DNA of 52,510 nt from a virus (Duplodnaviria > Caudoviricetes), in the IMG/VR virus record IMGVR_UViG_3300032257_000018, positions 1-52,510 of that record; one strand, 5' to 3'. The position numbers were made by a program, and so were the translations under genes. Position 1 is the stretch's first letter. The number at the start of each line of letters is the position of its first letter. Below, one piece after another: positions 3,577-42,014 of this stretch. A model generated the notes under the pieces. It saw only the letters and a program-made list of their open reading frames with translations, was not told the DNA's origin and did no database searches.

Positions 3577-3590
3577 AATTTTGTATAAAT

Positions 3591-3622
3591 AAAAAGGCCG
3601 GACCACAAACGCAGTCCGACCT
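3591..3622 (-). terminator. Intrinsic terminator (first after capsid gene)
   Basis: AGGTCGGAC...GTCCGGCCT hairpin then TTTTATTT on the minus strand. Confidence 0.7.
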
Positions 3623-3643
3623 ATTGTTTAGCCGATAAAGCTA

Positions 3644-4627
3644 TTACGCTTTAACAGCCACCTCACCGCGCACCATCCACAAGTCATTGAGGATTACGGC
3701 ATTCTGCATAGACTTCCATGCCACATGACCACGCTGACCCAGGGGATCACTGTCAGAAGGCTTAGGATTAACAACCATTGGGGTGATTGCAGTCTTACCC
3801 TTGAGCGGAACGATACCGTATGCATCACGTGCGACGTACAGCACAGGATATACATCCGCACTAGTACCAGTCGTACTCAGCATTGTGCCTTTCGCGCCAC
3901 CTGCATCCGCAAACGCCGTGAAGATTGTAGATGAAATGTAACGAACATCCTCAACCTTGCCGATTTCAGACTCATACGGCGTCATGCTTCCATATTTTTC
4001 ACATGGAACAAAACCCGTCATGTCACGAATATCAGACTCAAGATCCGAATGGACCAGACCGATAAACGATGGTGCAACCGCTTCAGTACCCCATGAAGGA
4101 GTTGAGCGAACAACCTTGGTGATCTTGCGCGCATTCTGACGCTTCAAGCTACGTGTAACACGACGCTGGAAAGCGATTGTAATAACAGTATTAACCGCAT
4201 TACGTGCAGAACCATTAGCGTATTCAACGCTGGTACCTGCTTTCAGCTTGTTATAACGCACCACTTCGATCATTTGAGCAGATTGCTCACCCAGCAGTTC
4301 AATGGTTTCCATCAAGACTGGATCTTCATGTGTATCCATGATGATGTCTGAAATGGTTACCAAGTCACCATACTGAGCTAAAGTCACTGATACATCGACA
4401 GATGACAGCTGCTTTGCGCTTGGTGTTACACCCTCAGTCAATGCATTGGGTGTAGTTGACAATGCACTATAACGTCGGAATGTAATTGTTTTTGAACTTC
4501 GACCTGGAAGCGGCTTGGCTTGACCAAACTTCTCCAGAACCAAGTAAGGAATACCGCGCTTCAATAATTCACGTGAAGCATGTGCGGCTGTACGTGGTGA
4601 AATATCACCATAAACTGTATCTACCAT
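3644..4627 (-). CDS. Major capsid protein, N4-gp56 family
   Basis: YGDISPRTAA, LTEGVTP, QYGD, EIGKVEDVRYI, SDSDPLGQRGHVAWK motifs; follows scaffold; GAGG SD. Confidence 0.92.
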   Translation of the reverse strand: MVDTVYGDISPRTAAHASRELLKRGIPYLVLEKFGQAKPLPGRSSKTITFRRYSALSTTPNALTEGVTPSAKQLSSVDVSVTLAQYGDLVTISDIIMDTHEDPVLMETIELLGEQSAQMIEVVRYNKLKAGTSVEYANGSARNAVNTVITIAFQRRVTRSLKRQNARKITKVVRSTPSWGTEAVAPSFIGLVHSDLESDIRDMTGFVPCEKYGSMTPYESEIGKVEDVRYISSTIFTAFADAGGAKGTMLSTTGTSADVYPVLYVARDAYGIVPLKGKTAITPMVVNPKPSDSDPLGQRGHVAWKSMQNAVILNDLWMVRGEVAVKA

Positions 4628-26448: not shown

Positions 26449-26724
26449 TTGACGAATCCGATCACATCGCCCATATTTGAGGCCATGACCTGCGAATTAT
26501 CCAGTTTTACAACATCATCGTTCATGATTATCGCCAATATTCTGGCGATAGCAGTGGCCCTGACTGTCCATTCAATATCCAATGCCAGGGCAAAGGCGCT
26601 ATACGATCACCATCAGGATGGCGAAAAGAAGCTGCATAGCGCGATATGGATCACCATATCAGTCATATCATACGCAGTGGTCTTATATGGCGTCCTTGCC
26701 ATGCTCAGATATGCAGCCTGTTAG
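26449..26724 (+). CDS. Small two-TM membrane protein
   Basis: GGAGG SD before TTG; two TM segments; stop overlaps the convergent giant gene's stop. Confidence 0.6.
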   Translation: MTNPITSPIFEAMTCELSSFTTSSFMIIANILAIAVALTVHSISNARAKALYDHHQDGEKKLHSAIWITISVISYAVVLYGVLAMLRYAAC

Positions 26725-29700
26725 CGGCCGAGTACGCCGCGCGCTTTCTTTCCGACCTGCTTCATTTTTGATTCAATGTCGCTTTTACGGTCCAGGTAAG
26801 CTGAATTACTAATCAGATTCCTACGTCGATCTAATTCATTCTGACTGTATTCATATTTCAGTTCACGCATTGTTGCGTCGAGTCCCCTTAACTTTCTGGA
26901 TATCCCAACACTTACATCACTCGCTTTCAGCTTGATTCCTATCGATGATGTTATTGAATAACCTAAGTCATAAGGACGACCAAGCATGTCACGACCACCA
27001 TTGACAGACCGCGCTATTTTGTCCCAGTACCATGAGTTGTATATCCATGGCGCAGACGGCATCCATGATTTCCATGCCCAGCCCGCAACCTTATTCACTC
27101 GATCCACGCCGTCATCCGTATCCGGGTTAATGATCTCTTTCCCGGTAAATGCGGTTTTATTCAATGCGAACTCCATGCCCAGCATCAAAGGCCCGCCAAA
27201 CTGCAGCCATGCCGGGATAGGTATGGCAGACTGGCCCTGATTGGTATCAAAGACATCGCCAGCCGGTATCCATCGTCGTATATCCATGAAAACAGGATTA
27301 CCATAACTATCAAGCCATGGAGCCCTGATCATTCGAGGTGTACCCAGCCAGGTGTTACCCTGCTCAGAATCATGTAGCGATCTACGCTCTTTATCTTCAT
27401 CATCGCCGCTGGGAGCCAACAGATAACCCATCGCATTGATCATGTAAGCAATGGTTGTATATTTTGCCAGCTTCCAAGGTCTTTCAGCAACAGCCTTTGC
27501 GATCACCGGGATAGCCCGATATGTGTATGCAATAAAGGGCAGGACTGATGATCTTGCCACATTCACAAATGGCGCTCGGATGTCATAATTCAAGAATTGA
27601 TCCCGCGCAATCTGGGCAGCGACATCCTTATGATCACCCATTCCAAGACGGCGCATATAGGTTGCCATGCGAAATACTTCATCTTCAAGCTGGTATGTTG
27701 ATATCATTTTATTATCTGCTTTTTTTACCAGCTTCCATAAACCGTCAACAAGCTTACCGGACTGTCCAATTTTGCGCTCGAAATAACCGTCACCATCATT
27801 ATTCTGCTCAAGTATTTCATCAAGAATAGGATTCAGTACTTCTCGTTTAATCTCATGTAAAACAAATCCTGATCCGAATGCACCATGCTCAAGCGCATCC
27901 TGATAATCTTGTGTTTTATGCCTCAAGGCATATATTCCGCGCTTCAGGTCACGCCACCTAACATCCGCCATGTCCATAAAGATCATATTCGACATGACAT
28001 TATTCATGTGTACAACAGGGTTTCGAGCGGTCTTATTAAGCTTCCATTGCGTTAATATTTTATTCCATGACTTTGGCTTTTGCATTTGAAACAGCTCATT
28101 AATATCACGCCATATTTCAGCCCGAACATATTTGCCTGATAATGCTCCCCAGCGTTTTTTATTGGTACCAGGGATATTTCCACTTGGCACCTGTATCCAT
28201 TCATATTGAGTATAAACGCTCCATCGATGACCAGTGGGCTCACCTATAACCCCTTCAGGCTCCCCCTCTCCGCTAAACGTCCAGGCTGGGTTAAGACTTA
28301 TATCTTTCAGGAACCGGCCATTAGCAAGATCTGACGACATCATATGGAATGTTTTAGCAATCGTATAACGGGCATCAAGGATCTCACCCATATTTATGCG
28401 TTCTTCCTTGGTAAAGTCGCGCCACAGAGTATATTTACCGCCGCGAGACTCCCTGACAGTCCACTTGCCTTTATTTTCCCATGCCTCATATTTTGCAGGT
28501 ACAGGCTTATTGGCGGGCCAGTATATTCGCTCAAGTATTTTTGGCTTTCTGATAGCAGGGTCAATGCCATCAAGATCAGCAACACCCTGGCCGACATTCG
28601 ACATACGATCAAATACAATAAATTCTTGATCAATCAGGCTGGCATCATTGCCGTTTTTCTTTTGACCGAACCAATCAGGTATTAATTTTGTTAAATCACC
28701 CTCGGATACCTTCAGATTCATGCCGCGCTGTTTAAATGTATCACCAGCAATTCTCTTTCTGCGCTTGCTCATGGCCTTACTTGCCCAACCTCCAAGCGTA
28801 TCCTGATCTGCCTCATGCTTTTTATACACACGATGCAAATAAGTAAGGCGGTTTTGCTGAAAGGTAGCCTCATCAAGCAGGCCCAGGGAAACCGCTTCAC
28901 GGCCCAGATCATCAATGGCGTTACGGATCGGCTCCGCGATAGCCTGCATTTCAGCATCACCTACTATTTCGCCATTCAATACAGCCTGAAGGACCTTAGC
29001 TTCTTTAAAATCCACGCCCCTATCAAGCAGATCCATGATGATATCCACGCCCTTGGTAGCTATACGGCGCTCTTGCGCATCACGCTCCTGATCGAGTCGC
29101 TTAAATTCTTCATCAAGGCCATACCGGTCAATCATGCCCGCGCGTACATTTTCAATAAATCCATTCATCCATGACATATGGCCATCATCTTTAAACTTGG
29201 CTTTAGTGATGGCATGAATAGCCTTGTCGTGAACCAATGTTGTTACCTGGTCAACTCGCGCCAGTTTAAAAGCAGATCTAAACATCCTATCAACGTACTG
29301 GCCACTATTTACATCATCAGCAAGAGCCCCTTGGATATTGTCATCATCACGCCGGGACAGGTAAACACTTGGATCATCAGAAAAGTCGCCATTATTGGCA
29401 GTGGATTTAATTTGATTGGAGTCAAAAACAACATAAGAGCCGTCTTCAGCAATGATAATGCCATCATGCCCCTGCTTGATTAACTCATCAGCAGCACTTT
29501 TCGCCTCATCACTTGTTTTTAATGACAGGAAGTTTTCCATAGTCATGTAATGCGGGTTCTCCATTTTCATAAAGAAACCACGCACTACATCACCATACCC
29601 GCCCGCTCGACGGGCATCAGGTGAAAAGAAGTGACCCAGGCTTGCACCGGGAACTTTCACCTTAGTAGAATCATGATCACGATCAAACACATCAAACGCA

Positions 29701-32700
29701 TCATTTGAACCATGAAACAGTATTAACGGATTACTATCAGAATCAATTATTTTGGAATCGCCGAACCAAGACTTAAAGGCTGGCGTTTTAGTTACGCTTT
29801 TTTCAGATCTCGAAGTCGATCCTGTTCTGCCCAGATCTTGTACAATTCCTTTTGAAATTGCGCGCCGACCCGCCCGGATGGATTGCTTATCATCCGTTGA
29901 AGTTCTTCCTGGCTCGGTTGCGGAGTCGAAAGAACCTTGTCTACCACTGGGTTTCCTGTTGTCTTCATGCCCTTGATTATAGCCGCTTTTACCATCTTTT
30001 CCACGTGATAATGCAACAATTGGGCTATTTACAAACTGATTATGTATAACAGGGCCATTCTTCACGTGATTAGAAACACCCTCCATCATGATCTTAATCT
30101 CTGATTCTGAAAGCTTTATTGATGGCCATACCTTTCGCATCCACTCCCGTACCATGGCAATAAGCTTATTATATATCGTCGGTTTTTCGCCTGTTTCAGC
30201 GATTCTCGCAAGCATTTCTTCTGCCGCTATTAACCGCTGCTTTGGTTTATTCAGATCAAGCTTGTATTTTTTAGCGAGATCCGCCAGTCCTTTTCGACCA
30301 TATGACATCACCACCAGATTCAGAAGCTTATCCAGATTTTTACCAAACACCTTACGCAAACCATAATGACCAAGTACTTCATGCATGACTATTACGGGAA
30401 CATCACTATCTTTTCGAATATTGTCAGCAATGAGCCATACAGCCCCAGTCTCAACATCATACAATCCTTCAGCTTCATTCGTTGACTTATCGGCATGCAA
30501 GTAATTAAGTATGTGATCCGGAAGTTGATCAACAGACTGCACAGTAATTATCTGCGGTCTTTCAACCCAATCACTGGTTATATCACTGGCAATGTCAACA
30601 ACCTGGGCAGAAGAAAGCCCGCTATTTGCGGGCTTGTTTGAGCGTGATAACAATGGATCTTTAGGAGGCGGGCTCTCTGATTCTAACTCACTCTCTATTT
30701 CAGCAAGTCTTTCTGACTTCGATTTCAAGTCATCTTCATACTGGAACTCACCAATAGATTCATTTTTCAATACACCCAGTTTCTTTTCTGCTATTTGTAT
30801 TTCTTCAGAAAACTCTAAATGAACATCACTCAGTCCCCTTGCTGCATTTTCTAGCCTACGGACCGTACCCAGGGCAGCGGGAGAAGAATCATTTTTCGAT
30901 AAGATTGACCCATTGAATAGCCATTTCCCGTCAATATTGGATACATGGTCATTTTCATACAGACCTACTTCCCATCCAGCAAGGTGTCTACTGAACGTAA
31001 TTGGATAGCCTGATATTTTACCAATCACTTGCTCATCAACTTTATCAGCATTCAATTTATCAGCAATCGCCAGGATCTTGATGCCAGCCTTCTTTCTGTC
31101 CGTGTAACTGTTTTGACCAAGCGTAATTGCGAATTTGTCGCCGCTGGTACTCTGGTATATTTTGGACAACTCAATCAATTCATCAAGCTGTTTCTTCATT
31201 CGCGGTATGCGCTTTTCATAATTCTCTATCTTTAATCTGCCTGAATGCCCCTGATTGATATGCGCAAACTTCAATGATTCGAGTTTTTTAACTTCTGATA
31301 TCAGTCCAGCCTGCTCAAGTAACAATGGATTACCAGAGGATAACGCTTTAGCCATCGCCATTTGATTGGCGCTATCACTTACGTCTTCAACACTATCTAT
31401 AGACAGGTCGCCGCTCATGACCTGATCTATCATTTTCTGCTTAGTTTCGTTTAACTGCCACATGAATGAATCAATAGTACCCTCAGTAGCATAAGCATAT
31501 AAACCAACCTCATCATTCTTATTGCCCTGGCGTATAGCCCTGCCTTCACGCTGAACGATATTGGCTGGCAGATAGTCAATATCAAGGTGATGAAGATCAT
31601 ATAGGCGCTGTTGCACGTTAACACCGGTACCCATATTCTTAGATCCACCAATCAGGATGCGCCTAACCCCGGTATTCATATCCCTGAACAGCTTTTTCTT
31701 CTTGTTAGAATTAGTGGCGTCTTGAATAAAGGCAATTTCATTCTTCGGGACCCCACGATTAACCAGTTCACTTCGGATATGCTCATATATATCGAATCCA
31801 TGAGACTGCCTGATCTCAGTAAATATAAGCTGCGTAGCCCCCTTCTTAATCTCAGGCTTATTGCCTTTATAATAAACCTTGTCAGAATTATCCTTCCATG
31901 ACTGATAAACAGCGTCAATCATAGCGTCAAGCTTACTCTTACCGCTTTGTGATCTACCTACCAGCCGCAAATCAATGGATGCTTTTTTAGCATCATTAAT
32001 AACCACCAGAATATTATCCTCACCCTTTTTAGCAGGTCCCTTCTTTTCTTCAAGCTTAGTGATTCTATTCTTCAGTGAATCTTGAAACTCAAGCATTTCA
32101 GGTGATCGTTTGACTGATACTATCTGTCTCGCGCCGCCTTTCACGGCAGGCCGCTTGATAGTAATAGACTCCTTGAGGTCATTATCTGACACGATATCAG
32201 CGATAGATAAGAAATCACGCAGCAATGCAGGAACACCAACAAACTTAGCTAATCTGGTTGATGGTTTAAATGACCCACTAGCCTGCATTTCAAGCTCTGT
32301 GACGGTATCCGCAAAAGTGGCTGACCATGAATCAAACGATGATGTATCGTTATCACGTAGGACTTCTGGCTGTAGGTACCGCTGAATATTAAACACTTCG
32401 CCAAGAGTATTCGTGACAGGTGTGCCGCTCATTAGTACCATATTCCGCCCAGGATTAACTGAATTCAAATAGCGTGATTTCAGGTACAGGTCCAGAGCAA
32501 TACCTGATCCAGTTGAATCAACTCCCTTTGTGTTTGATTGCTCTGTCGGGAATGGAATCTTCTTATGTGTGTGCGCTTCATCTACAAACAGAAAATCAAT
32601 ACCGGTTTCCTCAAACGTAATCCCGGCGTCTTTCTTCTCCTGTGATGTCATGGCATTCAGCCTGCTTTCCATGGCTTCTATTTGACGCTCAATTGTTTTG

Positions 32701-35700
32701 CGTGATGCCCGGTCACTTTCATCCACTTCTTCCAGAAGCTTGCGATACTCAGTCAGCATGGCCTCGATCTCATTGGTAATGAATTCATCGGACATAGCTA
32801 TTTTTTCAAATGATTGATGCGTCATAATAACTGCATCCCAATCCTCACTTGCCATCCTTGATAGGAATCGCCTGCGATTCTTCTTGTCCAGTTGCTTTTC
32901 ATCAGCAACAAGGATCTTCGCGTCAGGGTATGCATCCAGTAATTCAGTAGCAAACTGCTTCAGCGTGGATTTTAGCACCACATAAGTAGGCTTTTTCGCC
33001 AGCCCCAGTCGGCGTAACTCCATGCCTGCGATATTTGATGCCAGGGTTTTGCCTGATCCAACCGTATGCGCCATATAGGTATTTCCGCGCTGCAATATCC
33101 TCCACACTACATTTGTCTGCCATGAATGAGGCTTATAGCGGCTTGATAATCTAGGTAATGTCAGGTGTTTTCCATTGAATTTCCTTGGAACAGTCGTATT
33201 AAATACAGCGTTATATTTATTATGAAGTGCATCGGCTGACTGGGTATCGCTCAATGCCCAGCGACTAAACTGCTCTTTCAATTCTTGAGCCTTTTGGTTT
33301 GCTGCGGCTGTTTCTGTCTTGTTTAACTCACGAACAACCTGACCCCCTGACTTGAAAGTATCGTACACCTTGATCGTGCGCTTATTCAACGCAGCCTCTA
33401 GTATCTTGCTTGCAGTCATCCTGGCTGTAGCATACTTCTCGCCCTTAGATTCTCCGGTAACACTCCACGATGATGTGTCGCCTTTAATAAAGCTATCAAC
33501 ACGACCATCGAATGATAAGACTTCTTCGGCAAATTTTTGAACGATTTCTTTATCAATCCAGTGTGCGCCAAGATTGACAGGCACCCTTGACAGTGGAAGG
33601 TCTTCAGGCTGAACAGCTTCAAGTGCCTTAATATTTCCATCAAATCCAGCTTCGCCATTTTTTGCCGCTGCCTTCGCTGACTCAAGCTTTTGCTTCACGT
33701 TTCCACTAAGGTAATCATCCTCAGTCAGATATCGGCCTGTATCTGGATCTTGGAATATGACTGCATCCAGTTCCTCAATAGCCTCACTGGGAGACACACC
33801 ATACTTTTCAGCCAAGTAGTCAATATCGACATACCCGCGATCATTGAGCGTAACATTCAGAGCATCAGTCACACTTTCTATCTCAGCTTCCTTGCGTTTT
33901 GTCATGACATTTTCAGTAAAGATAGATCCCTTTTCTGCGGTATTAGTAGCTTCGTCGTAATGTTCAATACCCGCTACACGATAAGCTTCAGGATCAAGGT
34001 CTATAGTGCTGATAATAGGCTCGGTAACAATCTCAATACCATCCTTACGGACGATAGTTTTAACTTGATTGATTGGCCCATGCTTGCTAGTGAAAGTGTC
34101 ATATGCCTTATCTAGTACTTTTTGCGCTGCCTTCCAGTCACCATCAATAAACTGCTCAAGATAAACCTTCATGACCGCATCACGAAGCGGGATATAATCA
34201 CGAAGAATCTGCGCTTGCTTCTTGCTCATCCCTGTACGCTGGCCATTGCCACGCACTTTCACGCGAACACCTACACCATCTTCAACATTCCTTAATTCGT
34301 TATTTCCGTCAATAAAATAACTAGATTCCTTTTGTTTAGGATCAAGACTGAATTCTGTCTTCTTAGCTTCAAACTCAGCATCTTGAAGGTGATCGTTATA
34401 TACATTGCTAGGTAATGAGCCAATTGCTTCTTTAAGTTGCTCATTCAAATTACCAGAAGGCAATACAGTGTATTCATCCGATCCATACATTGATCCCTCA
34501 AGCGCCTGCGTACCTAGTACCATATTAGGATTAGCAACAAAATAACTATTTATATTTGCTTTACCACCATCAACATCAATCTGATGGGTATCTGTCCAGG
34601 CACTACCATTCGACTCAACATTCTCGCCAAGTTTTTGGAAGAATAGAATATCAGTGACAACTTCAGTTCCGGCATTTTCTTTAAATGCGGTCTGCGGCAA
34701 TCTAATGGCACCCAGTAGCCTTGCTCGTTCAGCTAAATAGGCGCGCGCTGCATTATCCGCTTTATCCATGGTGCCTTTACTGGTTACGAATACAGCAATA
34801 CCACCAGGCTTTACTGAATCAATCTGCTTGGCGATAAAGTAATCATGCAGTTTGAAATTATTACTTTTATAGCGAGGATCAGATTTGACAGAGAAACCAG
34901 CAAATGGAGGGTTCCCGATAGATAGGTCGAAGTGGTTTTGCGGTAACCCTATTTTAGTAAAGTCACCAGAGATAACACCTGACTGCGGGTATAATAATTT
35001 TGCAATAGCCGCACTGATACTATCCATTTCAATGCCGGTATAATGAATATTCATAGAGTTAGGTATTAACCCAATAAAATTACCCGTACCAGATCCGCCC
35101 TCGATGGCGAGTCCCCTTTTGAATCCAAAATTACCAATAGCGGTATAGATAGAATCGATAATCGGCTTTGATGTGTAATGGGCATATTGAGTGCTACGCG
35201 CAGCCGTTTTCAATTCTTCTTCTGTCAGAATTTCACGTAATTCATCATGTAATTCCTTCCAGGTTCCGGTAGGCTCTTTCTTTGAAGGGAATAATTTATT
35301 GGCAAGTTCAGACGCTCCCCATCCCGTATAACTAGCAAGTATCTTCTGCTCTGATTTTGTCGCGCTACGGTTTTCTTTTTGAAGTGTCTTTATGATGCGA
35401 ATAGCCTCAATATTAGCCTTCGCTTTTTGAAGGGCAGATCCAGCCCCTAAATTATCATTATCCGTTATGCGGTAATTTGTCCGTACAGGTAATTCAGTTC
35501 TGTCATTATCTGCGCCATTTCTATCTCCTGTGCGCTCATTGCCGCCATGTTCATTGTTGCCGCTACGTCCTGTGGGTCGTTTTTGTCCGCCTGGCTTCTT
35601 GCTGCCCTTGCTGCCGCCGTTCTTGCTTCCGTTACTTGTTCCTGATACTGGATTATTATCTGATCCAGCTCCCCGCTCTGGCTCATTTGCTTGAACTTGG

Positions 35701-38700
35701 TCGGATTCAGGTCCTTGATCGTTTCTTTGATTGTCGTCAGGTAGCTCATTGGTATTTTCCTCTGATCTCAGTATAGCAGGATCGGCAAATAAATCGCCGG
35801 TTTCCAGTGTATCTGGCTCTGGTTTAGTCTTTTTGGTAGGTTTTTTGCTGTCAATGTCACTTGCTGATGTCATTGCTGAGTTATCAAGCCCAGGATAATA
35901 CCTTGCTCCCTCATAGAATGAACGGATATAAGGCTTTATTGCATCCCCCATATCATTAATCATTTTCTTGGAATAATCAGAAAAGGACCGCGCACCAGCT
36001 TCGATATGATATACGGCAAGCTCAGTACCAAGCGCAATTAACTCAGGATCAAGGCCAGAATTAATGTTGTTCAGCTTGGCTTTTAATTTGGCCCGGATCT
36101 CATCAGCCCGGTCACTGGATACAAGTTTGTTGCCTGATCCATAATTAGAGCCTTTCTTTTCTTCTGGCTTATTAGCTTGATTGTCAGCTTTCTCGCTAAT
36201 AGCCTCCTTTAATGCCTTGTTTGCGCCATCATCATCAAGATCTTGATAATAGTAATCCTCGACAATGTTATCTATTTCTTTTTCTGTAAAACCATATTGA
36301 TCCACGGCTTTAGTGATTAATGCTGAATCAAGCCTGTCATATTTATATGAGACAGCCATCGCAAGATTATCAATAGCGTTATTAGCCTGGAAAAATGAAT
36401 AAGCAAATCCTTCAGGTGTTGCAGACCGGGCATTCTTTGTAGCAAGACTCTTGCCGCCGTATTTTGTATGCATCTTAGAGCCTTCCGTGGCTTCAGTAGG
36501 CGCGATAGGAAGATCAGCATTAAACCTACCCCAGATAAGCGTCTTTTTAGTGTAGTCTTCTCCAACATGATTCGGATCAAATGACAGTCGCCAAGGTGGT
36601 AATCCGCCTAGTCGCTCAATTCGGCCTACTGGGTTTTCCAGAGCCCATATTGGTGGCTTAAAGTATTCAATTATATTTAATGTTTGATGCACAAGATTAA
36701 CAGATGCCGCAGTTCTACCATCTTTATCTTTTGCTGCAAAATGCCGCGCTCCACTTGAGGCAAAATCAGTACATGGGCAGGCAGCTAATACCGCATAAAC
36801 GTCAGCACCTTCAAACATGCCGAACATATCTGCATATAAATCAAATCCATGGTTATTAATGTCGCCAATATTAACCTCTTGATCGGCTTCTACTGTTTCG
36901 TTATATACGTCAGCCAACCAGTTATCCTGGATGTCAAAACGATATACCTGATAGCCAGCTTGTTCCCAGGGTAGTGACCACTTTCCCGTTAAGTCAAACA
37001 ATGAAAGAACTACTTTATTTTGGTTTGCGCTTCCCTTCCCCTGCTTAACAGCGTTTTCCTCCCATTCATCAATTTTTTTCTTCGCTTCTTCTATAGTCAT
37101 CCATCCATGGTCTTTATGGTAAACCTTAACTTTATCATTTAATCGAACAATATCATTCTTGGCCGGATCATCGAAAACATGAGTAAATTCTTCATCGCTT
37201 GATTCTTGAGCGTCATTGAATTCTTTTACAATTTCATTAAGCTCACGATTATCAACACCGACATCTTGATGCTCAGGCGCTTTGCTTTCAGTCTTACCCT
37301 GGGCCTTTTTCTTTAGTGCGTCTTGCTTGCTAGTAGGATTAGTGGAATCGCGTACTTCATCAATTGTTTTCCTGAATTTCTCTTTATCCCCCTTGAATAT
37401 TAATTCAACAATGTCAATCTCGCTTTTATTTTCAAGCGTAACACCTACAGGGTATCCATCGGAGTCGTTAGTAATTTTTTCAATATCAAAAAGGCCAATT
37501 TTTTCGCCTTTCTTCCAACTTACTAATCTTTCAGCAACATACCCTGGACCAAGATTTTCAACTAATTTAGTTTTCTTTTTAGGTTTGTCTTTCTTGCTTG
37601 GCTTGGATTCATTGTTTGCAATAACGGTTGCGTTATCGTCTTCAATGATATCGCCTTCTTTATCTATCCATGTGTTTTTTTGTTTTTCTCCGTCTTCGAC
37701 GTATTCTTTAACAGCTGTACCGTCAGGCAATTCGTGTGTCGGCGTGAATTCTTTTTTCTTCGGAGTAGGTGAAGTAGTTTTTTGAGCATCATCAATATCT
37801 ACCTGTTTCGATTTTCCGCTGAATAAATCACCATCACCAGATTCAACGGGCTGATTCTCAGATCCGTTTCGCTGAATGTCCTTGCTGATAGTTTTATCAT
37901 GGATGGCCTGGGCATTGGCATCGGCTGTTCCAAATATGTCATTTTGCTGGGCAGCATCATCCGTAACGCTACTTGATGGAGGAGTTTGCTGATCTAATTG
38001 GAAGGTTCCTGCTTCTGGCGTACCTTTGGCCGGGTTCCGTTCTTCTTGTGTTCCCGTAATCGCTGAACCATTTCCTTCCGTTCCTTCATGCTTTTGCTGT
38101 TCTTGTCCATTGTCTTTACCTTCTCGAATCAATTGGCCGAGCATTTGAGCGGCCTGATAATCGGATATATTCCTTCCTGCTATGGCTTCAGCCGCGTCAG
38201 AGTCATACTGGCTTGCCTCATCGAGTAATTCATAAAATGCCATCGTTTCGGCTGACCAATCTGGATTATACTCGGTTTGATCAAAGTGTGAACCAGCATT
38301 ATCATAACGCTCATCCTGAAAAATGCTACCAGGTTCCTCACGGTCAATCGCAAATCGTATAAATGAACGGGCTTTATCGCGCCTTTTTACTGCGTCATCG
38401 ATGTTTGCAGGTGATTCACGTTCAGCCTGAATGTTATCCATGGCCGCTTTTACGATATTCGCCTGATTTTTACCAAGCGGCTTACCTTCAAGCGCGCGAG
38501 TCAATGCCGTGGCTACCTGTGCATGACTTGCCTTTCCGTCGATCTCACGAACAGAAGACAATGCCTGAAGCTTATCCTGATCAACATTTACAGAGAATAC
38601 GGAGTCACCACCCAAGGCAACACCCAGCTTATCAACTGCTTCATTGGCCGTGTAATTTGTATCTATATAGCCATCCTGAGACAATAACTCAGCAATAGCA

Positions 38701-40490
38701 TCAAAACTGTTTCCACCCTGGGCCGGGAATAATGGACGGCCAAACACCTTATTTTTGTCTTTGAAGTTCTCAGGGTCAAAACCTTGAGCAAGAGCCTCAT
38801 CACGATTAATACCGCCGATCTTGGCAATTGCCGTCAAAATATCGTCGGTAGTGGAATCGACCTGCGTTGATTTTTTATCCGACGCTGCACCAATAATGGA
38901 TAGAGTACCCTGTATTCCATCCCTGTATTCGACTCGCTTAATACGTGGATCATTAAGGCCCTTGGGTACAATAATGCCTGCGGTTTTATTCTGGACATCA
39001 TTTACCCGGTTATCAAGGTCAATTCGTCTGGCCGCATCCCGCTCGGTTTCAATTGTGGCATCCAGAGAAGGAAGCTCAGGCTCGTTATTGTCTTGCGCGA
39101 AGTCAATGCCGCCCGGATAATTGATGGCAGGCTCCGTGGCCCCCGTAGACGCTGACAATGGATCTGCATCGGCTTGTGGCTCAGGTACAGTAAAATCAAT
39201 CCCGCCGTCATACTGAAAGTCATCAGCCAATGGATCAATGATATCGGGATTAGCGTCAGCTTGTGGCTCAGGCACAACAAAATTGACACCACCTTCATAC
39301 TGAACATTATCAGGATTAGCATCAGCGACTACATCACCAGCAACACCACCAATAACATCACCTGCATCAAGTGGGTCACTGCTTGAATCTGGCGTAGGTT
39401 TTTCGGGTTTATCAGGTTTCGCAATGTTCCCAGGATTGGGGTCACCCGCAACCGCAGAAAGCGCACCACCTGCGCCGAAACCACCAATAAATGATTGAAG
39501 CGCACCCTCACTGACACTTTTAGCGGGATCGTAGTATGACTTTATTGAAAGATTGGTATTACTATTCTGTAATAACTCGGTAGAGCCCTCACCCAAGCCG
39601 CCTTTGAGGAACCTTGAAAATAGATTCCCGCTAGATCCAAGAATTTTATCAAGACCGACTTTTTCAAGGTAAGAGTTTACCGTCGCTACCTGCGCCATGG
39701 CCTTTGTAAATGCAATCGGGTCAACCTTTTGACCAGTTCGCTTTTCAAAGTCAGTGGCATCGGTTGAGACTTCCATGGACTCAAGCCATGCCATAAAGGG
39801 TAAGGAGCCGCCAGACTTATAAGCGGCAACTAATGAAGGAACAGCCTGAGACAAAAATCCAATTACCGCCTTTGGGTCACTTATAATCTTTCCGGCTTTA
39901 CTGAAATCACCATCCAATAGTGCATCAAACGCCTTATCAGCATCCTGCGATGCTTTCGATAGGTCCTTGAATGGCTTGAATTCTTGCGGCAATACATCCT
40001 GGCTATGTCCAATTGCATCCGCAACATCCGAGGTACCAGCAACATGATAATCACCAATATCAACACCGGTTGTAATAACGTCCATTATTCCTTTACCCTG
40101 GATCTTTGCGGGTATAATCGGTTGCGTCATCCAGTCGGGCAGTCCCATTCTTTTACCGAATTGGTTTATCGCTTCCGTGACTCGTGCAAATGCGCTTGGT
40201 GTTTCCCATATACCACGGGAAATAGCCAATGTTCCCTGAGCAGCACCGGCACCAGCAACACCCGCTATGTCTCCAAGAGAAGTGCTATCGTCCTGATTGG
40301 TATTTGGAAGATTGCTTGCAGAATCAGGGATAGACGTACCAAAACCACCCTGCCTGATAGGTGTGTCAGGCTTTACAGGATCATCGAGCGGATCAATTGC
40401 GCCTTCCATATTCACATCATCAAGCGGATTAATTATGTTAGACGTAGAAACGCCATACGAATCATCGAGCGGATCAATTATTTTAGCCAT
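26721..40490 (-). CDS. Giant polyvalent virion/ejection protein (DarB-like): C5-MTase-like + N6-MTase + SF2 helicase + zincin-like peptidase + ART-like + large C-terminal domain
   Basis: LSLFD.TG / ACPCTDF / ENP (~36380-37015); GSGTGNF / NPPF (~34400-35460); HTVGSGKT / DEAH / SGTP / QREGR (~31300-33130); HEVLGHYG..EE (~30050-30640); FHGS / FFS / GYG (~29360-29790); last gene of the ejection operon. Confidence 0.92.
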   Translation of the reverse strand: MAKIIDPLDDSYGVSTSNIINPLDDVNMEGAIDPLDDPVKPDTPIRQGGFGTSIPDSASNLPNTNQDDSTSLGDIAGVAGAGAAQGTLAISRGIWETPSAFARVTEAINQFGKRMGLPDWMTQPIIPAKIQGKGIMDVITTGVDIGDYHVAGTSDVADAIGHSQDVLPQEFKPFKDLSKASQDADKAFDALLDGDFSKAGKIISDPKAVIGFLSQAVPSLVAAYKSGGSLPFMAWLESMEVSTDATDFEKRTGQKVDPIAFTKAMAQVATVNSYLEKVGLDKILGSSGNLFSRFLKGGLGEGSTELLQNSNTNLSIKSYYDPAKSVSEGALQSFIGGFGAGGALSAVAGDPNPGNIAKPDKPEKPTPDSSSDPLDAGDVIGGVAGDVVADANPDNVQYEGGVNFVVPEPQADANPDIIDPLADDFQYDGGIDFTVPEPQADADPLSASTGATEPAINYPGGIDFAQDNNEPELPSLDATIETERDAARRIDLDNRVNDVQNKTAGIIVPKGLNDPRIKRVEYRDGIQGTLSIIGAASDKKSTQVDSTTDDILTAIAKIGGINRDEALAQGFDPENFKDKNKVFGRPLFPAQGGNSFDAIAELLSQDGYIDTNYTANEAVDKLGVALGGDSVFSVNVDQDKLQALSSVREIDGKASHAQVATALTRALEGKPLGKNQANIVKAAMDNIQAERESPANIDDAVKRRDKARSFIRFAIDREEPGSIFQDERYDNAGSHFDQTEYNPDWSAETMAFYELLDEASQYDSDAAEAIAGRNISDYQAAQMLGQLIREGKDNGQEQQKHEGTEGNGSAITGTQEERNPAKGTPEAGTFQLDQQTPPSSSVTDDAAQQNDIFGTADANAQAIHDKTISKDIQRNGSENQPVESGDGDLFSGKSKQVDIDDAQKTTSPTPKKKEFTPTHELPDGTAVKEYVEDGEKQKNTWIDKEGDIIEDDNATVIANNESKPSKKDKPKKKTKLVENLGPGYVAERLVSWKKGEKIGLFDIEKITNDSDGYPVGVTLENKSEIDIVELIFKGDKEKFRKTIDEVRDSTNPTSKQDALKKKAQGKTESKAPEHQDVGVDNRELNEIVKEFNDAQESSDEEFTHVFDDPAKNDIVRLNDKVKVYHKDHGWMTIEEAKKKIDEWEENAVKQGKGSANQNKVVLSLFDLTGKWSLPWEQAGYQVYRFDIQDNWLADVYNETVEADQEVNIGDINNHGFDLYADMFGMFEGADVYAVLAACPCTDFASSGARHFAAKDKDGRTAASVNLVHQTLNIIEYFKPPIWALENPVGRIERLGGLPPWRLSFDPNHVGEDYTKKTLIWGRFNADLPIAPTEATEGSKMHTKYGGKSLATKNARSATPEGFAYSFFQANNAIDNLAMAVSYKYDRLDSALITKAVDQYGFTEKEIDNIVEDYYYQDLDDDGANKALKEAISEKADNQANKPEEKKGSNYGSGNKLVSSDRADEIRAKLKAKLNNINSGLDPELIALGTELAVYHIEAGARSFSDYSKKMINDMGDAIKPYIRSFYEGARYYPGLDNSAMTSASDIDSKKPTKKTKPEPDTLETGDLFADPAILRSEENTNELPDDNQRNDQGPESDQVQANEPERGAGSDNNPVSGTSNGSKNGGSKGSKKPGGQKRPTGRSGNNEHGGNERTGDRNGADNDRTELPVRTNYRITDNDNLGAGSALQKAKANIEAIRIIKTLQKENRSATKSEQKILASYTGWGASELANKLFPSKKEPTGTWKELHDELREILTEEELKTAARSTQYAHYTSKPIIDSIYTAIGNFGFKRGLAIEGGSGTGNFIGLIPNSMNIHYTGIEMDSISAAIAKLLYPQSGVISGDFTKIGLPQNHFDLSIGNPPFAGFSVKSDPRYKSNNFKLHDYFIAKQIDSVKPGGIAVFVTSKGTMDKADNAARAYLAERARLLGAIRLPQTAFKENAGTEVVTDILFFQKLGENVESNGSAWTDTHQIDVDGGKANINSYFVANPNMVLGTQALEGSMYGSDEYTVLPSGNLNEQLKEAIGSLPSNVYNDHLQDAEFEAKKTEFSLDPKQKESSYFIDGNNELRNVEDGVGVRVKVRGNGQRTGMSKKQAQILRDYIPLRDAVMKVYLEQFIDGDWKAAQKVLDKAYDTFTSKHGPINQVKTIVRKDGIEIVTEPIISTIDLDPEAYRVAGIEHYDEATNTAEKGSIFTENVMTKRKEAEIESVTDALNVTLNDRGYVDIDYLAEKYGVSPSEAIEELDAVIFQDPDTGRYLTEDDYLSGNVKQKLESAKAAAKNGEAGFDGNIKALEAVQPEDLPLSRVPVNLGAHWIDKEIVQKFAEEVLSFDGRVDSFIKGDTSSWSVTGESKGEKYATARMTASKILEAALNKRTIKVYDTFKSGGQVVRELNKTETAAANQKAQELKEQFSRWALSDTQSADALHNKYNAVFNTTVPRKFNGKHLTLPRLSSRYKPHSWQTNVVWRILQRGNTYMAHTVGSGKTLASNIAGMELRRLGLAKKPTYVVLKSTLKQFATELLDAYPDAKILVADEKQLDKKNRRRFLSRMASEDWDAVIMTHQSFEKIAMSDEFITNEIEAMLTEYRKLLEEVDESDRASRKTIERQIEAMESRLNAMTSQEKKDAGITFEETGIDFLFVDEAHTHKKIPFPTEQSNTKGVDSTGSGIALDLYLKSRYLNSVNPGRNMVLMSGTPVTNTLGEVFNIQRYLQPEVLRDNDTSSFDSWSATFADTVTELEMQASGSFKPSTRLAKFVGVPALLRDFLSIADIVSDNDLKESITIKRPAVKGGARQIVSVKRSPEMLEFQDSLKNRITKLEEKKGPAKKGEDNILVVINDAKKASIDLRLVGRSQSGKSKLDAMIDAVYQSWKDNSDKVYYKGNKPEIKKGATQLIFTEIRQSHGFDIYEHIRSELVNRGVPKNEIAFIQDATNSNKKKKLFRDMNTGVRRILIGGSKNMGTGVNVQQRLYDLHHLDIDYLPANIVQREGRAIRQGNKNDEVGLYAYATEGTIDSFMWQLNETKQKMIDQVMSGDLSIDSVEDVSDSANQMAMAKALSSGNPLLLEQAGLISEVKKLESLKFAHINQGHSGRLKIENYEKRIPRMKKQLDELIELSKIYQSTSGDKFAITLGQNSYTDRKKAGIKILAIADKLNADKVDEQVIGKISGYPITFSRHLAGWEVGLYENDHVSNIDGKWLFNGSILSKNDSSPAALGTVRRLENAARGLSDVHLEFSEEIQIAEKKLGVLKNESIGEFQYEDDLKSKSERLAEIESELESESPPPKDPLLSRSNKPANSGLSSAQVVDIASDITSDWVERPQIITVQSVDQLPDHILNYLHADKSTNEAEGLYDVETGAVWLIADNIRKDSDVPVIVMHEVLGHYGLRKVFGKNLDKLLNLVVMSYGRKGLADLAKKYKLDLNKPKQRLIAAEEMLARIAETGEKPTIYNKLIAMVREWMRKVWPSIKLSESEIKIMMEGVSNHVKNGPVIHNQFVNSPIVALSRGKDGKSGYNQGHEDNRKPSGRQGSFDSATEPGRTSTDDKQSIRAGRRAISKGIVQDLGRTGSTSRSEKSVTKTPAFKSWFGDSKIIDSDSNPLILFHGSNDAFDVFDRDHDSTKVKVPGASLGHFFSPDARRAGGYGDVVRGFFMKMENPHYMTMENFLSLKTSDEAKSAADELIKQGHDGIIIAEDGSYVVFDSNQIKSTANNGDFSDDPSVYLSRRDDDNIQGALADDVNSGQYVDRMFRSAFKLARVDQVTTLVHDKAIHAITKAKFKDDGHMSWMNGFIENVRAGMIDRYGLDEEFKRLDQERDAQERRIATKGVDIIMDLLDRGVDFKEAKVLQAVLNGEIVGDAEMQAIAEPIRNAIDDLGREAVSLGLLDEATFQQNRLTYLHRVYKKHEADQDTLGGWASKAMSKRRKRIAGDTFKQRGMNLKVSEGDLTKLIPDWFGQKKNGNDASLIDQEFIVFDRMSNVGQGVADLDGIDPAIRKPKILERIYWPANKPVPAKYEAWENKGKWTVRESRGGKYTLWRDFTKEERINMGEILDARYTIAKTFHMMSSDLANGRFLKDISLNPAWTFSGEGEPEGVIGEPTGHRWSVYTQYEWIQVPSGNIPGTNKKRWGALSGKYVRAEIWRDINELFQMQKPKSWNKILTQWKLNKTARNPVVHMNNVMSNMIFMDMADVRWRDLKRGIYALRHKTQDYQDALEHGAFGSGFVLHEIKREVLNPILDEILEQNNDGDGYFERKIGQSGKLVDGLWKLVKKADNKMISTYQLEDEVFRMATYMRRLGMGDHKDVAAQIARDQFLNYDIRAPFVNVARSSVLPFIAYTYRAIPVIAKAVAERPWKLAKYTTIAYMINAMGYLLAPSGDDEDKERRSLHDSEQGNTWLGTPRMIRAPWLDSYGNPVFMDIRRWIPAGDVFDTNQGQSAIPIPAWLQFGGPLMLGMEFALNKTAFTGKEIINPDTDDGVDRVNKVAGWAWKSWMPSAPWIYNSWYWDKIARSVNGGRDMLGRPYDLGYSITSSIGIKLKASDVSVGISRKLRGLDATMRELKYEYSQNELDRRRNLISNSAYLDRKSDIESKMKQVGKKARGVLGR
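29792..29968 (-). CDS. Nested +1-frame gene (58 aa) inside the giant gene, probably leaderless
   Basis: TATAAT at 29976-29981, 7 nt before ATG; MKTTGNPVVDKVLSTPQPSQEELQRMISNPSGRVGAQFQKELYKIWAEQDRLRDLKKA; coincides with a linker of the host frame. Confidence 0.55.
   Translation of the reverse strand: MKTTGNPVVDKVLSTPQPSQEELQRMISNPSGRVGAQFQKELYKIWAEQDRLRDLKKA
35465..35749 (-). CDS. Nested +1-frame gene (94 aa) inside the giant gene, TnpV-like by eye
   Basis: Extended -10 TGCTATACT (35770-35778), GAGGA SD 8 nt before ATG; amphipathic helical product; coincides with a linker of the host frame. Confidence 0.7.
   Translation of the reverse strand: MSYLTTIKETIKDLNPTKFKQMSQSGELDQIIIQYQEQVTEARTAAARAARSQADKNDPQDVAATMNMAAMSAQEIEMAQIMTELNYLYGQITA
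37994..38110 (-). CDS. Possible nested +1-frame gene (38 aa, basic)
   Basis: GAAGGT SD-like 7 nt before ATG; MDKNSKSMKERKEMVQRLREHKKNGTRPKVRQKQEPSN; coincides with a linker; no clear promoter. Confidence 0.35.
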   Translation of the reverse strand: MDKNSKSMKERKEMVQRLREHKKNGTRPKVRQKQEPSN

Positions 40491-40499
40491 TATGAACCT

Positions 40500-42014
40500 T
40501 TAGTTTGGAATTTGATTTACAAGAAGCGTCTGAAGTACAGCCAGTGCATCCGCCTTTTCTTTACCTTTCATGAATGGCAGTGCTTTCTTTATTGCCTCCA
40601 AGCTTCCCTTTGGATTCGATTTGTAATCCTTCATTGCCGTTCTTGCGGTAGCCAGTGATTGCTTGCGAGTAGATGAGTTATTTACGCCGGGACCGCTCGG
40701 GCTCGGGCTCGGGCTGGACTCAGGACGTTGACCTTGATTTTTGATTCTCACTTTAGGAAAACGCTTTTGAACAAGCTTCAATAATCGCGGATCATTGGGT
40801 TTCATCTTGTTAATTTTAGCCAGCAGTTTTACATAAGCATTCGGATCTTTTGCCGCAGCCGCCCTTTCTTCAGCGGTTACGCCTCCGCCACCCGTTTTCG
40901 CCATTCGAGATCTAAGAACATTATTTATATGTGAGAAAATACGCTTCTCTTGCTCACCGGCAATCTGTTTAGCTCGATTTTCAATCCATTTTTCACGGGA
41001 CATACCAAAATCTGACTGATCACCACTGAAATAACCAGCCTTATCATCCGCTTCAGCCTGAGCAAGCTTTAACGCAGCATCCTGACTGATATAATTATTA
41101 CCTGAAGCCTCAAGAACAATACGCGCAGCTTCACCACCACCGATACCCGGCACACTGCTTGTTATCTTGTCTGTCAACGCAGATAGCTTCCAGTATTTCT
41201 CGCTATTACCTTCAGGTACACCCCAGTTTCCGGACGCATCAAGCTTGCCGCTCATTGACTGAGCCAGCTGACTCCTTGCATCTTTCTGGGCCATTCGAAG
41301 ATTACTACTGCCTTTCCCATTTTTGGCTTTATTCTTTACTCCCTGAAGATTCGCTTTAAGCCCGTATTCATGGGTTAGCAACCCAAGACCATGCCTCTGC
41401 TTGTCTTCTCTGACATAATCCGCGCGACTGTTCTTGCTGGCCGCTAGTTTAGCGTTTCTTGCGTCATTAATAGGTGTATTGTCACCTGTCTGAATTCTGG
41501 CAAGCTGAAGGGCATCACGCGCAGAATTACGACGATTTAACAAGTCAGTGAAAAAGTCATCCATTGGAATAACCTGTACGCCTGCATCATTCGGACCACG
41601 CCCGGTAGTCATGGGAGCCTCATATGATGTGCCGTCAGGCCGGGTCACCTGCAGCCTGGGAACAAATCCCTTACCGTCTTTAGTTGGATGAGCCCCAATA
41701 ATTCGCTTGGTTGATCCTTCGGGAGTTCCCCGATTAATAACCGGAGCATATTCAGTATTAACAGCATTCAACCAGTCCTGATTAAACTGACCGCGTTCAA
41801 ATCCATACTGAATAACATTCAGGTTAGTCAGCTTTTTGCGGTTTGATTCTGTTCGATCAAGGGTTTCAATCTGACGATTGTATAATTCTGTTCTACGAGA
41901 ATCCTGAATATCCTGGCGACCATTGTTGCGTTCTTGTTGCGCACGACGATCTTTACGATCTTCGATATTAGCAGCAATGCCGTAACCTCTTGCAAAACCA
42001 TCAGTAAAACCCAT
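40500..42014 (-). CDS. Internal virion (ejection) protein
   Basis: MGFTDGFARGYG start, helical Q/R/A-rich; between small ejection genes and the giant gene. Confidence 0.75.
   Translation of the reverse strand: MGFTDGFARGYGIAANIEDRKDRRAQQERNNGRQDIQDSRRTELYNRQIETLDRTESNRKKLTNLNVIQYGFERGQFNQDWLNAVNTEYAPVINRGTPEGSTKRIIGAHPTKDGKGFVPRLQVTRPDGTSYEAPMTTGRGPNDAGVQVIPMDDFFTDLLNRRNSARDALQLARIQTGDNTPINDARNAKLAASKNSRADYVREDKQRHGLGLLTHEYGLKANLQGVKNKAKNGKGSSNLRMAQKDARSQLAQSMSGKLDASGNWGVPEGNSEKYWKLSALTDKITSSVPGIGGGEAARIVLEASGNNYISQDAALKLAQAEADDKAGYFSGDQSDFGMSREKWIENRAKQIAGEQEKRIFSHINNVLRSRMAKTGGGGVTAEERAAAAKDPNAYVKLLAKINKMKPNDPRLLKLVQKRFPKVRIKNQGQRPESSPSPSPSGPGVNNSSTRKQSLATARTAMKDYKSNPKGSLEAIKKALPFMKGKEKADALAVLQTLLVNQIPN

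Follow-up and report, generated by a model that had tools for sequence, protein, structure and literature searches.

A short gene probably embedded in the +1 frame of a DarB-like giant phage gene, at the edge of its methylase-helicase core

Can the stretch of DNA that specifies a linker in a giant phage protein also carry a second gene in another reading frame? The question is raised by IMG/VR virus record IMGVR_UViG_3300032257_000018 (Duplodnaviria; Caudoviricetes), whose positions 1 to 52,510 were analysed as one stretch of 52,510 nucleotides (nt), here called the window. A giant gene on its minus strand encodes a DarB-like polyvalent protein, and within the linker that precedes the methylase-helicase core of this protein lies a short open reading frame (ORF) which a preliminary description had read as a genuine overprinted gene with its own promoter and Shine-Dalgarno (SD) sequence. 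We conclude, with a probability of roughly 0.85, that this ORF is a real gene embedded in the +1 frame of the linker and that its product is a probable accessory partner of the giant protein. The ORF, the GAGGA placed 8 nt before its ATG and the motif TGCTATACT were all found on the minus strand where they had been reported:

35465..35749, minus strand: nested gene (product P0001), 94 codons and a TAA stop, offset by +1 from the host frame; ATG at 35749..35747, TAA at 35467..35465.
35758..35762, minus strand: Shine-Dalgarno sequence GAGGA, 8 nt 5' of the nested ATG.
35770..35778, minus strand: extended -10-like motif TGCTATACT; the motif is present, a promoter role is not supported.
26721..40490, minus strand: host gene, DarB-like polyvalent protein of 4589 amino acids (aa), from domain matches and homologues.
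35466..35750, minus strand: host residues 1581-1675, hydrophobic-poor linker overlapping the nested ORF.
34713..34961, minus strand: N6-adenine methylase catalytic core, Eco57I-type, host residues 1844-1926, from a Pfam match.

How much of this could arise by chance within the window? Leucine, isoleucine, valine, phenylalanine and methionine make up 6% of the overlapped host segment and 24.5% of the whole protein. A stop codon in the +1 frame requires a T at host codon position 2, that is, a hydrophobic residue, so that a hydrophobic-poor linker keeps the +1 frame open. When the host protein was resampled synonymously (20,000 trials), the nested frame was stop-free in 75% of the trials, and the median open-frame probability over the remaining host gene was 0. 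Further stop-free +1 runs of 108, 96 and 92 codons occur in the host gene, at approximately 39005..39328, 36320..36607 and 33419..33694 respectively, all on the minus strand. The start signals are no rarer than expected: the pattern GAGGA-N5-9-ATG is found 9 times in the window for 9.0 expected, and the extended -10 pattern TGNTATAMT twice for 5.3 expected. The proposed extended -10 promoter is not supported: besides occurring at chance frequency the motif is not kept in the closest relative (locus L002, by our own reading), and a promoter scan listed no sigma-70-like site upstream of the nested ORF. Its hexamer also ends only 7 nt before the SD sequence, so that with standard promoter geometry a transcript would begin at the SD sequence itself. 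The sole other extended -10 match in the window, a perfect TGATATAAT at 41087..41095 on the plus strand, is antisense within a 504-aa ORF (40500..42014, minus strand).

The argument for a gene, which is one from sequence comparison, therefore comes solely from relatives. A phmmer search of 1.84e9 representatives with the nested protein returned 22 proteins at E<=0.001 (4.7e-28 to 9e-4), ten of them at E<=1e-10 and most of them 91-104 aa long, and a profile search for the family returned 23 proteins at E<=0.01. Ten of the phmmer homologues were looked up and stand on contigs of 565-12,043 bp; two NCBI genomes annotate ORFs of the family as 'hypothetical protein'. The closest relative of the host protein, P0003, is 63% identical over the region, and its DNA (L002) encodes in the +1 frame a 97-aa homologue with 59% identity, preceded by GGAGG 6 nt 5' of the ATG.

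A hidden Markov model (HMM) of the family was built from an alignment of 21 sequences (A1; one truncated and two long repetitive hits were excluded) and searched against six-frame sets of stop-to-stop ORFs from each locus, a small database in which E values are relative. The window's own ORF scored E 7e-45, and each of 13 related loci (13/13) held a same-strand match inside the giant gene (E 6e-39 to 4e-4). These loci comprise one IMG/VR contig, two metagenome contigs, a Caballeronia prophage and nine phages of Burkholderia (Bcep22, BcepMigl, BcepIL02, JC1 and CSP3) and Ralstonia (YL2, Eline, Darius and UAM5). The preliminary description had proposed looking for similar ORFs upstream of DarB-like methylase-helicases, and in all 13 the homologous ORF was there with its frame intact. 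With the window included, 14/14 loci have the nested ORF at a +1 offset from the giant gene. An SD-like purine run stands 6-10 nt before the homologous ATG in all 14 and is kept although the host amino acids differ at that spot. The methylase module begins with the host motif [ND][YH]R[IV], and the nested stop falls inside this motif, again in 14/14 loci. In every giant-gene locus examined the ORF lies exactly at the start of that module, irrespective of the N-terminal domains. Across clades DNA identity is gone and protein-profile similarity is kept.

Annotation has passed over the ORF. In the nine GenBank records inspected, the giant coding sequence alone is annotated over it (JC1 also has a terminator on the opposite strand). 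A tblastn search with the Bcep22 version found it in 41 phage records (10 of Burkholderia and 31 of Ralstonia), always under the giant coding sequence alone, and the same kind of search found no copy of the Bcep22-type ORF on plasmids. Scans of IMG/VR gave 13 stretches with P0001 and 115 with a second alignment (A2), none of which was confirmed.

We then asked which of the two frames bears amino-acid constraint. An OLGenie-style estimator, in which each site is classed by its effect in both frames, was applied to four independent pairs, one per clade, drawn from the 14 sequences and pooled. Over the overlap, the ratio of nonsynonymous to synonymous change was 0.40 for the +1 frame (dNN/dNS; p=8.5e-9) and 0.84 for the host frame (dNN/dSN; p=0.22). 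The corresponding values were 0.94 and 0.58 in the 900 nt of the upstream flank, and 0.80 (p=0.019) and 0.20 in the 1500 nt of the downstream flank. With all pairs within clades, the overlap gave 0.28-0.46 for the nested frame and 0.67-1.09 for the host frame. A sliding window of 90 codons was also moved over about 5 kb for two pairs. Windows over the ORF were the only ones in which host codon position 1, equivalent to nested position 3, changed more often than host position 3 (maxima 1.48 and 1.25; at most 1.00 elsewhere). The pair formed by the window and L002 is close to saturation. In this pair the substitution pattern shows no such frame flip in either of the other +1 runs that lie within 33001..38000, and the 108-codon run falls outside the DNA comparable with L002. 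The host frame is not idle either: when the nested protein is recoded synonymously, the host frame is open in 1e-4 of cases, so that the read-through frame, too, is actively kept. The stretch is genuinely dual-coding, with the short frame bearing the amino-acid constraint and the host amino acids evolving almost freely.

The nested protein itself is predicted to fold with confidence. AlphaFold2, run on a 39-sequence alignment (A4) that excluded long or truncated variants and all sequences from annotated-record loci, gave a predicted local distance difference test score (pLDDT) of 93.5 and a predicted template modelling score (pTM) of 0.80. The model has four helices (residues 2-14, 16-25, 27-53 and 59-89), in line with the helical product expected from the sequence. 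P0001 has an isoelectric point (pI) of 4.6, and the family is acidic throughout (median pI 4.62; 37/39 members below 6). Taken together, the frame, start, SD sequence and stop kept in all loci, the selection on the nested frame and the confident fold uphold the claim of a genuine overprinted gene, and we consider it very likely that the ORF is translated.

The proposed likeness to TnpV is supported for the family only as a distant resemblance, and by the criterion of Pfam the family is not a member. P0001 has no TnpV match in Pfam at E<=10. TnpV (PF14198) is nevertheless matched at E<=1 by 9/21 members, and by 22/39 in the later set (best E 6e-5), and no other Pfam family is matched by more than 3/39. 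Ten members were scored individually; five match TnpV at 10.9-18.7 bits and five not at all, and every score seen lies below the Pfam gathering cut-off of 27 bits. The matches are collinear, running from profile positions 26-34 to 108-110 and leaving the N-terminal 30 positions uncovered. In a protein-language-model atlas, the top clusters (scores 0.86, 0.92 and 0.88) carry TnpV on 19% and 33% of their members, which we take at the level of a lead. A PF14198 search found no match in genome G001 or in 14 control genomes, and 401 Pseudomonadota genomes held three sub-threshold matches and none above the cut-off. Nor does the name bring a function with it, since the TnpV of Tn4451 is only 'postulated to be involved in excision', on account of its similarity to lambda Xis, in the portion of PMC3158075 considered. 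In Streptococcus suis, TnpV-bearing mobilisable elements insert specifically into the snf2 gene of integrative and conjugative elements (ICEs), according to the part of PMC9815147 considered; as far as that text goes, this is a second, unexplained link of TnpV-type genes to SNF2/methylase giant genes. Some family members are longer (P0122, P0123, P0125 and P0132; 147-230 aa). Two of them repeat a C-terminal '...EELDLLYG-QTTES' segment in tandem, and P0132 has an extra domain of about 130 residues. The first three stand on contigs of 693-1813 bp and P0132 on one of 1479 bp (cluster members up to 3442 bp).

Outside giant genes, one Burkholderiaceae genome (L016/L019) carries a full-length homologue standing alone (E 3.6e-35), in which the nested frame is intact and both other same-strand frames are broken. 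When giant-protein queries were run against it by tblastn, the overlap segment was matched and its flanks were not. Its neighbour is an HNH-like ORF, and a scan of 10 ORFs in L019 showed no recombinase. An ORF of about 74 aa at L019 8969..9190 (plus strand) converges on the free-standing copy from 200 bp away. Against a tiny database, this ORF and a similar one in L018/L020 (G773) match the family HMM weakly (E 5.5e-4 and 9.3e-8), and neither has a Pfam match at E<=0.01; the two may form another branch of the nested-family superfamily. Among the genomes sampled, matches were found in 2/401 at the level of the order and in 4/398 at that of the family (three genomes were unscored).

The spread of the nested gene under giant genes was gauged from protein sequences by a footprint test, which asks what residues are encodable in the +1 frame from the host protein and scores two ungapped HMM blocks. 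From 120 listed giant homologues, 13 without the Y-x-GWG anchor were dropped. Among the remaining 107, 42 beat every one of 100 column permutations and 31 reached z>=4, figures that are partly circular for the top scorers because the HMM includes members of the Burkholderia clade. A count of 65/107 against a far-position null was discarded as inflated by linker composition. An in-frame fusion of the domain is absent from all 120 giant homologues, the highest domain score being 5.7 bits. Considered together, the free-standing copy and the relatives resembling TnpV suggest that the small gene is the older of the two and that the linker of the giant gene is a derived read-through frame.

What the product might do is suggested by its position. 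In the host protein, as is characteristic of DarB-like proteins, an N6 methylase comes before an SF2/SNF2 helicase within a single giant ORF of the virion module: the helicase part (DEAD/SNF2/Helicase_C) spans residues 2458-2989, with DEAD at 2458-2615 and Helicase_C at 2883-2989. A C5-methylase domain is found at residues 1161-1286 and an ART-PolyVal domain at 3583-3700, and the Bcep22 and BcepIL02 proteins named 'DarB-like antirestriction protein' are among its 437 homologues at E<=0.001. Because the ORF always lies at the edge of the methylase module, binding was tested on the segment that follows. The nested protein and a 575-residue host segment (P0170; the methylase and the region before the helicase) were submitted to complex prediction with our own alignments, and the score was 0.72 in three runs, the best of three controls reaching 0.01. 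The mark for this score was reached by 58/80 solved complexes and 2/110 mismatched pairs, counts that hold only roughly here since our own alignments were used. The runs share at least 92% of contacts, and the pLDDT of the partner is at least 86. The host segment has no solved homologue by sequence, so that recall of a known complex is unlikely. The docking surface is predicted as follows:

33894..34328, minus strand: predicted docking surface, host residues about 2055-2199 (residues 380-524 of P0170, chain 1).

This region lies between the methylase catalytic domain and the helicase, and no Pfam domain was found in it. On the nested side the predicted interface is formed by helices 3-4, including the family-conserved D58-P59 and M66-N67. 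A70 of the nested protein and Y495-R496 of the host fragment are also among the predicted contacts. The adjacent methylase-helicase had been named as the possible target of regulation or inhibition, and the prediction points to the same partner; we put binding of the nested protein to the giant protein at a little better than even odds. We propose that translation of the nested ORF would most likely start internally on the long late mRNA, at the conserved SD sequence and ATG that the ORF itself carries, a simpler model in which an own promoter is unneeded. The nested protein would then dock on the predicted surface between the methylase and helicase domains and could serve as a cis-encoded regulator, inhibitor or assembly/packaging chaperone of the giant protein. 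A more tentative extension, which we hold with considerably less confidence, is that in a large share of DarB-like polyvalent proteins the inter-domain linker is an other-frame read-through over an older TnpV-like gene, across which upstream effector domains became fused to the methylase-helicase core as the giant gene arose, and that the small protein survives as a cis-encoded stoichiometric partner clamping the region between methylase and helicase. Such a clamp would keep the enzyme in an inactive or a packaging-competent state inside the producer cell up to the moment of ejection.

Alternatively, the gene may be real and its product independent of the giant protein, acting as an acidic DNA-mimic or anti-defence factor against host restriction or as an Xis-like recombination directionality factor, an explanation that we regard as possible but doubtful. 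The family is uniformly acidic, as are DNA-mimic anti-restriction proteins, and one free-standing copy occurs without a giant gene. An Xis-like role would suit the distant TnpV resemblance and the excision postulated for the Tn4451 protein (PMC3158075, in the portion considered), but an acidic protein would be an unlikely DNA binder of the Xis type. Both versions have to contend with an ORF placed exactly at the start of the methylase module in every giant-gene locus examined, and with a complex prediction that passes with large margins. It is improbable that the nested frame is entered by programmed +1 frameshifting from the host frame, which would join the N-terminal half of the giant protein to a 94-residue tail. 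Frameshifting is common in phage late genes, and the frames are on the same strand with a +1 offset in 14/14 loci; yet the SD sequence and ATG are conserved in all of these, and a nested-frame stop six codons before the ATG, in the window as in L002, means that a shift site could hardly be accommodated. Homologues of 91-113 aa that were called separately, and the free-standing copy, likewise speak against frameshifting.

The two explanations that dispense with a protein fare worse. If the ORF were a by-product of a linker without hydrophobic residues, its SD sequence and ATG being there by chance, one would expect what the window offers, namely an open probability of 0.75 for the +1 frame, other runs of 92-108 codons and motifs at chance frequency. 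One would not expect selection to switch to the nested frame over the ORF, amino-acid homology to extend across clades whose host linkers are unalignable, or a confident fold and a free-standing copy with a broken host frame, and we consider a by-product very improbable. A conserved nucleic-acid element, whether an RNA structure or a DNA site, is the least probable of all: nothing specific favours this general alternative, substitutions concentrate at nested third positions, and DNA identity is lost across clades while protein-profile similarity is retained.

Several points weigh against a real gene whose product partners the giant protein. Because the open frame, the SD sequence and the -10-like motif are all at chance level, the evidence of the window is insufficient by itself. 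A tblastn search of 50,697 phage records with P0001 found none at E<=10, and a word-indexed protein search gave four candidates, none at E<=1, so that the clade of the window rests on one DNA relative (L002) and short metagenome contigs. Of the sequencing runs listed as containing this sequence, one is of DNA, possibly the source sample, and none is of RNA. On the selection side, the estimator was self-written, its binomial tests assume independent sites, and the downstream flank shows a mild +1-frame signal of its own (0.80, p=0.019). No fold or family match assigns a function to the nested protein. Foldseek against the PDB gave 0/58 matches at E<=0.001, a structure search of BFVD a best E of 0.75, and the VIA wide structure search a best Z of 6.9, a generic helical level, with none at Z>=8. 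A sequence profile against the PDB gave six weak matches, the best (E 0.005) among designed repeat proteins; NCBIfam showed no recurrent family and PHROGs weak single matches only. The binding result is a model confidence rather than a measurement, and it covers a single segment of the giant protein. Host homologues that lack a nested-gene footprint conserve the interface segment as well as those that have one, so that its conservation does not discriminate between them.

With the embedded gene as the preferred reading, the arrangement resembles that of Rz1 within Rz in lambda-like phages, where a small gene is entirely contained in a larger one, is read from the same strand at a +1 offset and has its own start. 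The Rz1-type features found here, on sequence evidence, are the embedded +1 frame, start signals in 14/14 loci and purifying selection. The products of Rz and Rz1 form a complex, whereas binding between the nested and giant proteins is predicted only. The proteins are also unrelated, the setting is a virion-borne methylase-helicase rather than lysis, and the host stretch is here a nearly unconstrained linker of a 4589-aa protein. Embedded Rz/Rz1 spanin genes are also present in Bcep22-like phages, according to the portion of PMC9144972 considered. The Pfam TnpV family (PF14198), known from Tn4451-type transposons and from ICEs and integrative and mobilisable elements of Firmicutes, is of similar size and is the sole recurrent Pfam match. 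In the part of PMC3158075 considered, TnpV genes stand free on transposons beside serine recombinase genes, unlike the phage gene described here, which is nested. As with overprinting in small viruses, one of the two frames is folded and under constraint, and the other is low-complexity and near neutral. In those viruses it is the novel frame that is disordered and fast-evolving; here the short embedded frame looks older and is predicted to be folded.

A further parallel is with phage P1. P1 DarB requires small accessory Dar proteins to enter the capsid, and their genes are separate rather than embedded. The host gene of the window belongs to the same methylase-helicase dyad family as DarB (PMC5512222, in the portion considered), and small accessory proteins for the capsid entry of P1 DarB are alluded to in the corresponding portion of PMC9144972.

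Two further observations concern the giant protein. P0003 has zeta-toxin-like and GGDEF domains instead of the C5 methylase and ART-PolyVal domains of the protein of the window, so that N-terminal cargo is swapped around a constant methylase-helicase core. Within the otherwise unalignable linkers, the host motif PDDNQRNDQG (about 35715..35745, minus strand; PDNNQRDDQG in P0004) is a conserved island, and the same DNA encodes the N-terminal helix that is conserved in the nested protein. What look like linker motifs in these giant proteins may be imprints of the other frame.

We found no description in the literature of a gene inside DarB-like genes, the original Bcep22 paper and supplements being outside the scope of the search. 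PMC9144972, on JC1, discusses the embedded Rz1 and, in the portion considered, has nothing inside the DarB-like gene and does not use the word 'nested'. In the corresponding portion of PMC5512222, on polyvalent proteins (Iyer et al., 2017), TnpV, overlapping and frameshift are all absent. Rz/Rz1 already exemplify the principle of an embedded +1-frame gene whose product pairs with that of its host gene; the present case, with its family and context, appears to have gone undescribed.

The DarB-like gene accounts for about a fifth of the genome of Bcep22-like phages, by the account in the portion of PMC9144972 considered, and it has hitherto been analysed as a single protein. A second gene within it would change the parts list of phages considered for therapy and biocontrol, and the nested-gene footprint, a protein-only measure, suggests its presence in at least 31-42/107 giant homologues. 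The locus also carries a lesson for gene finding: because disordered, hydrophobic-poor linkers automatically leave the +1 frame free of stops, the length of an ORF and its start motifs count for nothing as evidence in them, and only frame-specific selection tells real nested genes from by-products. For the biology of the dyad, it offers the concrete hypothesis of a small acidic protein docked between methylase and helicase, and it is a possible case of the long gene, not the short one, being the overprinting newcomer. If the clamp were to prove true, this would be the first function for the orphan TnpV superfamily, as a partner of the methylase/SNF2 modules of mobile elements.

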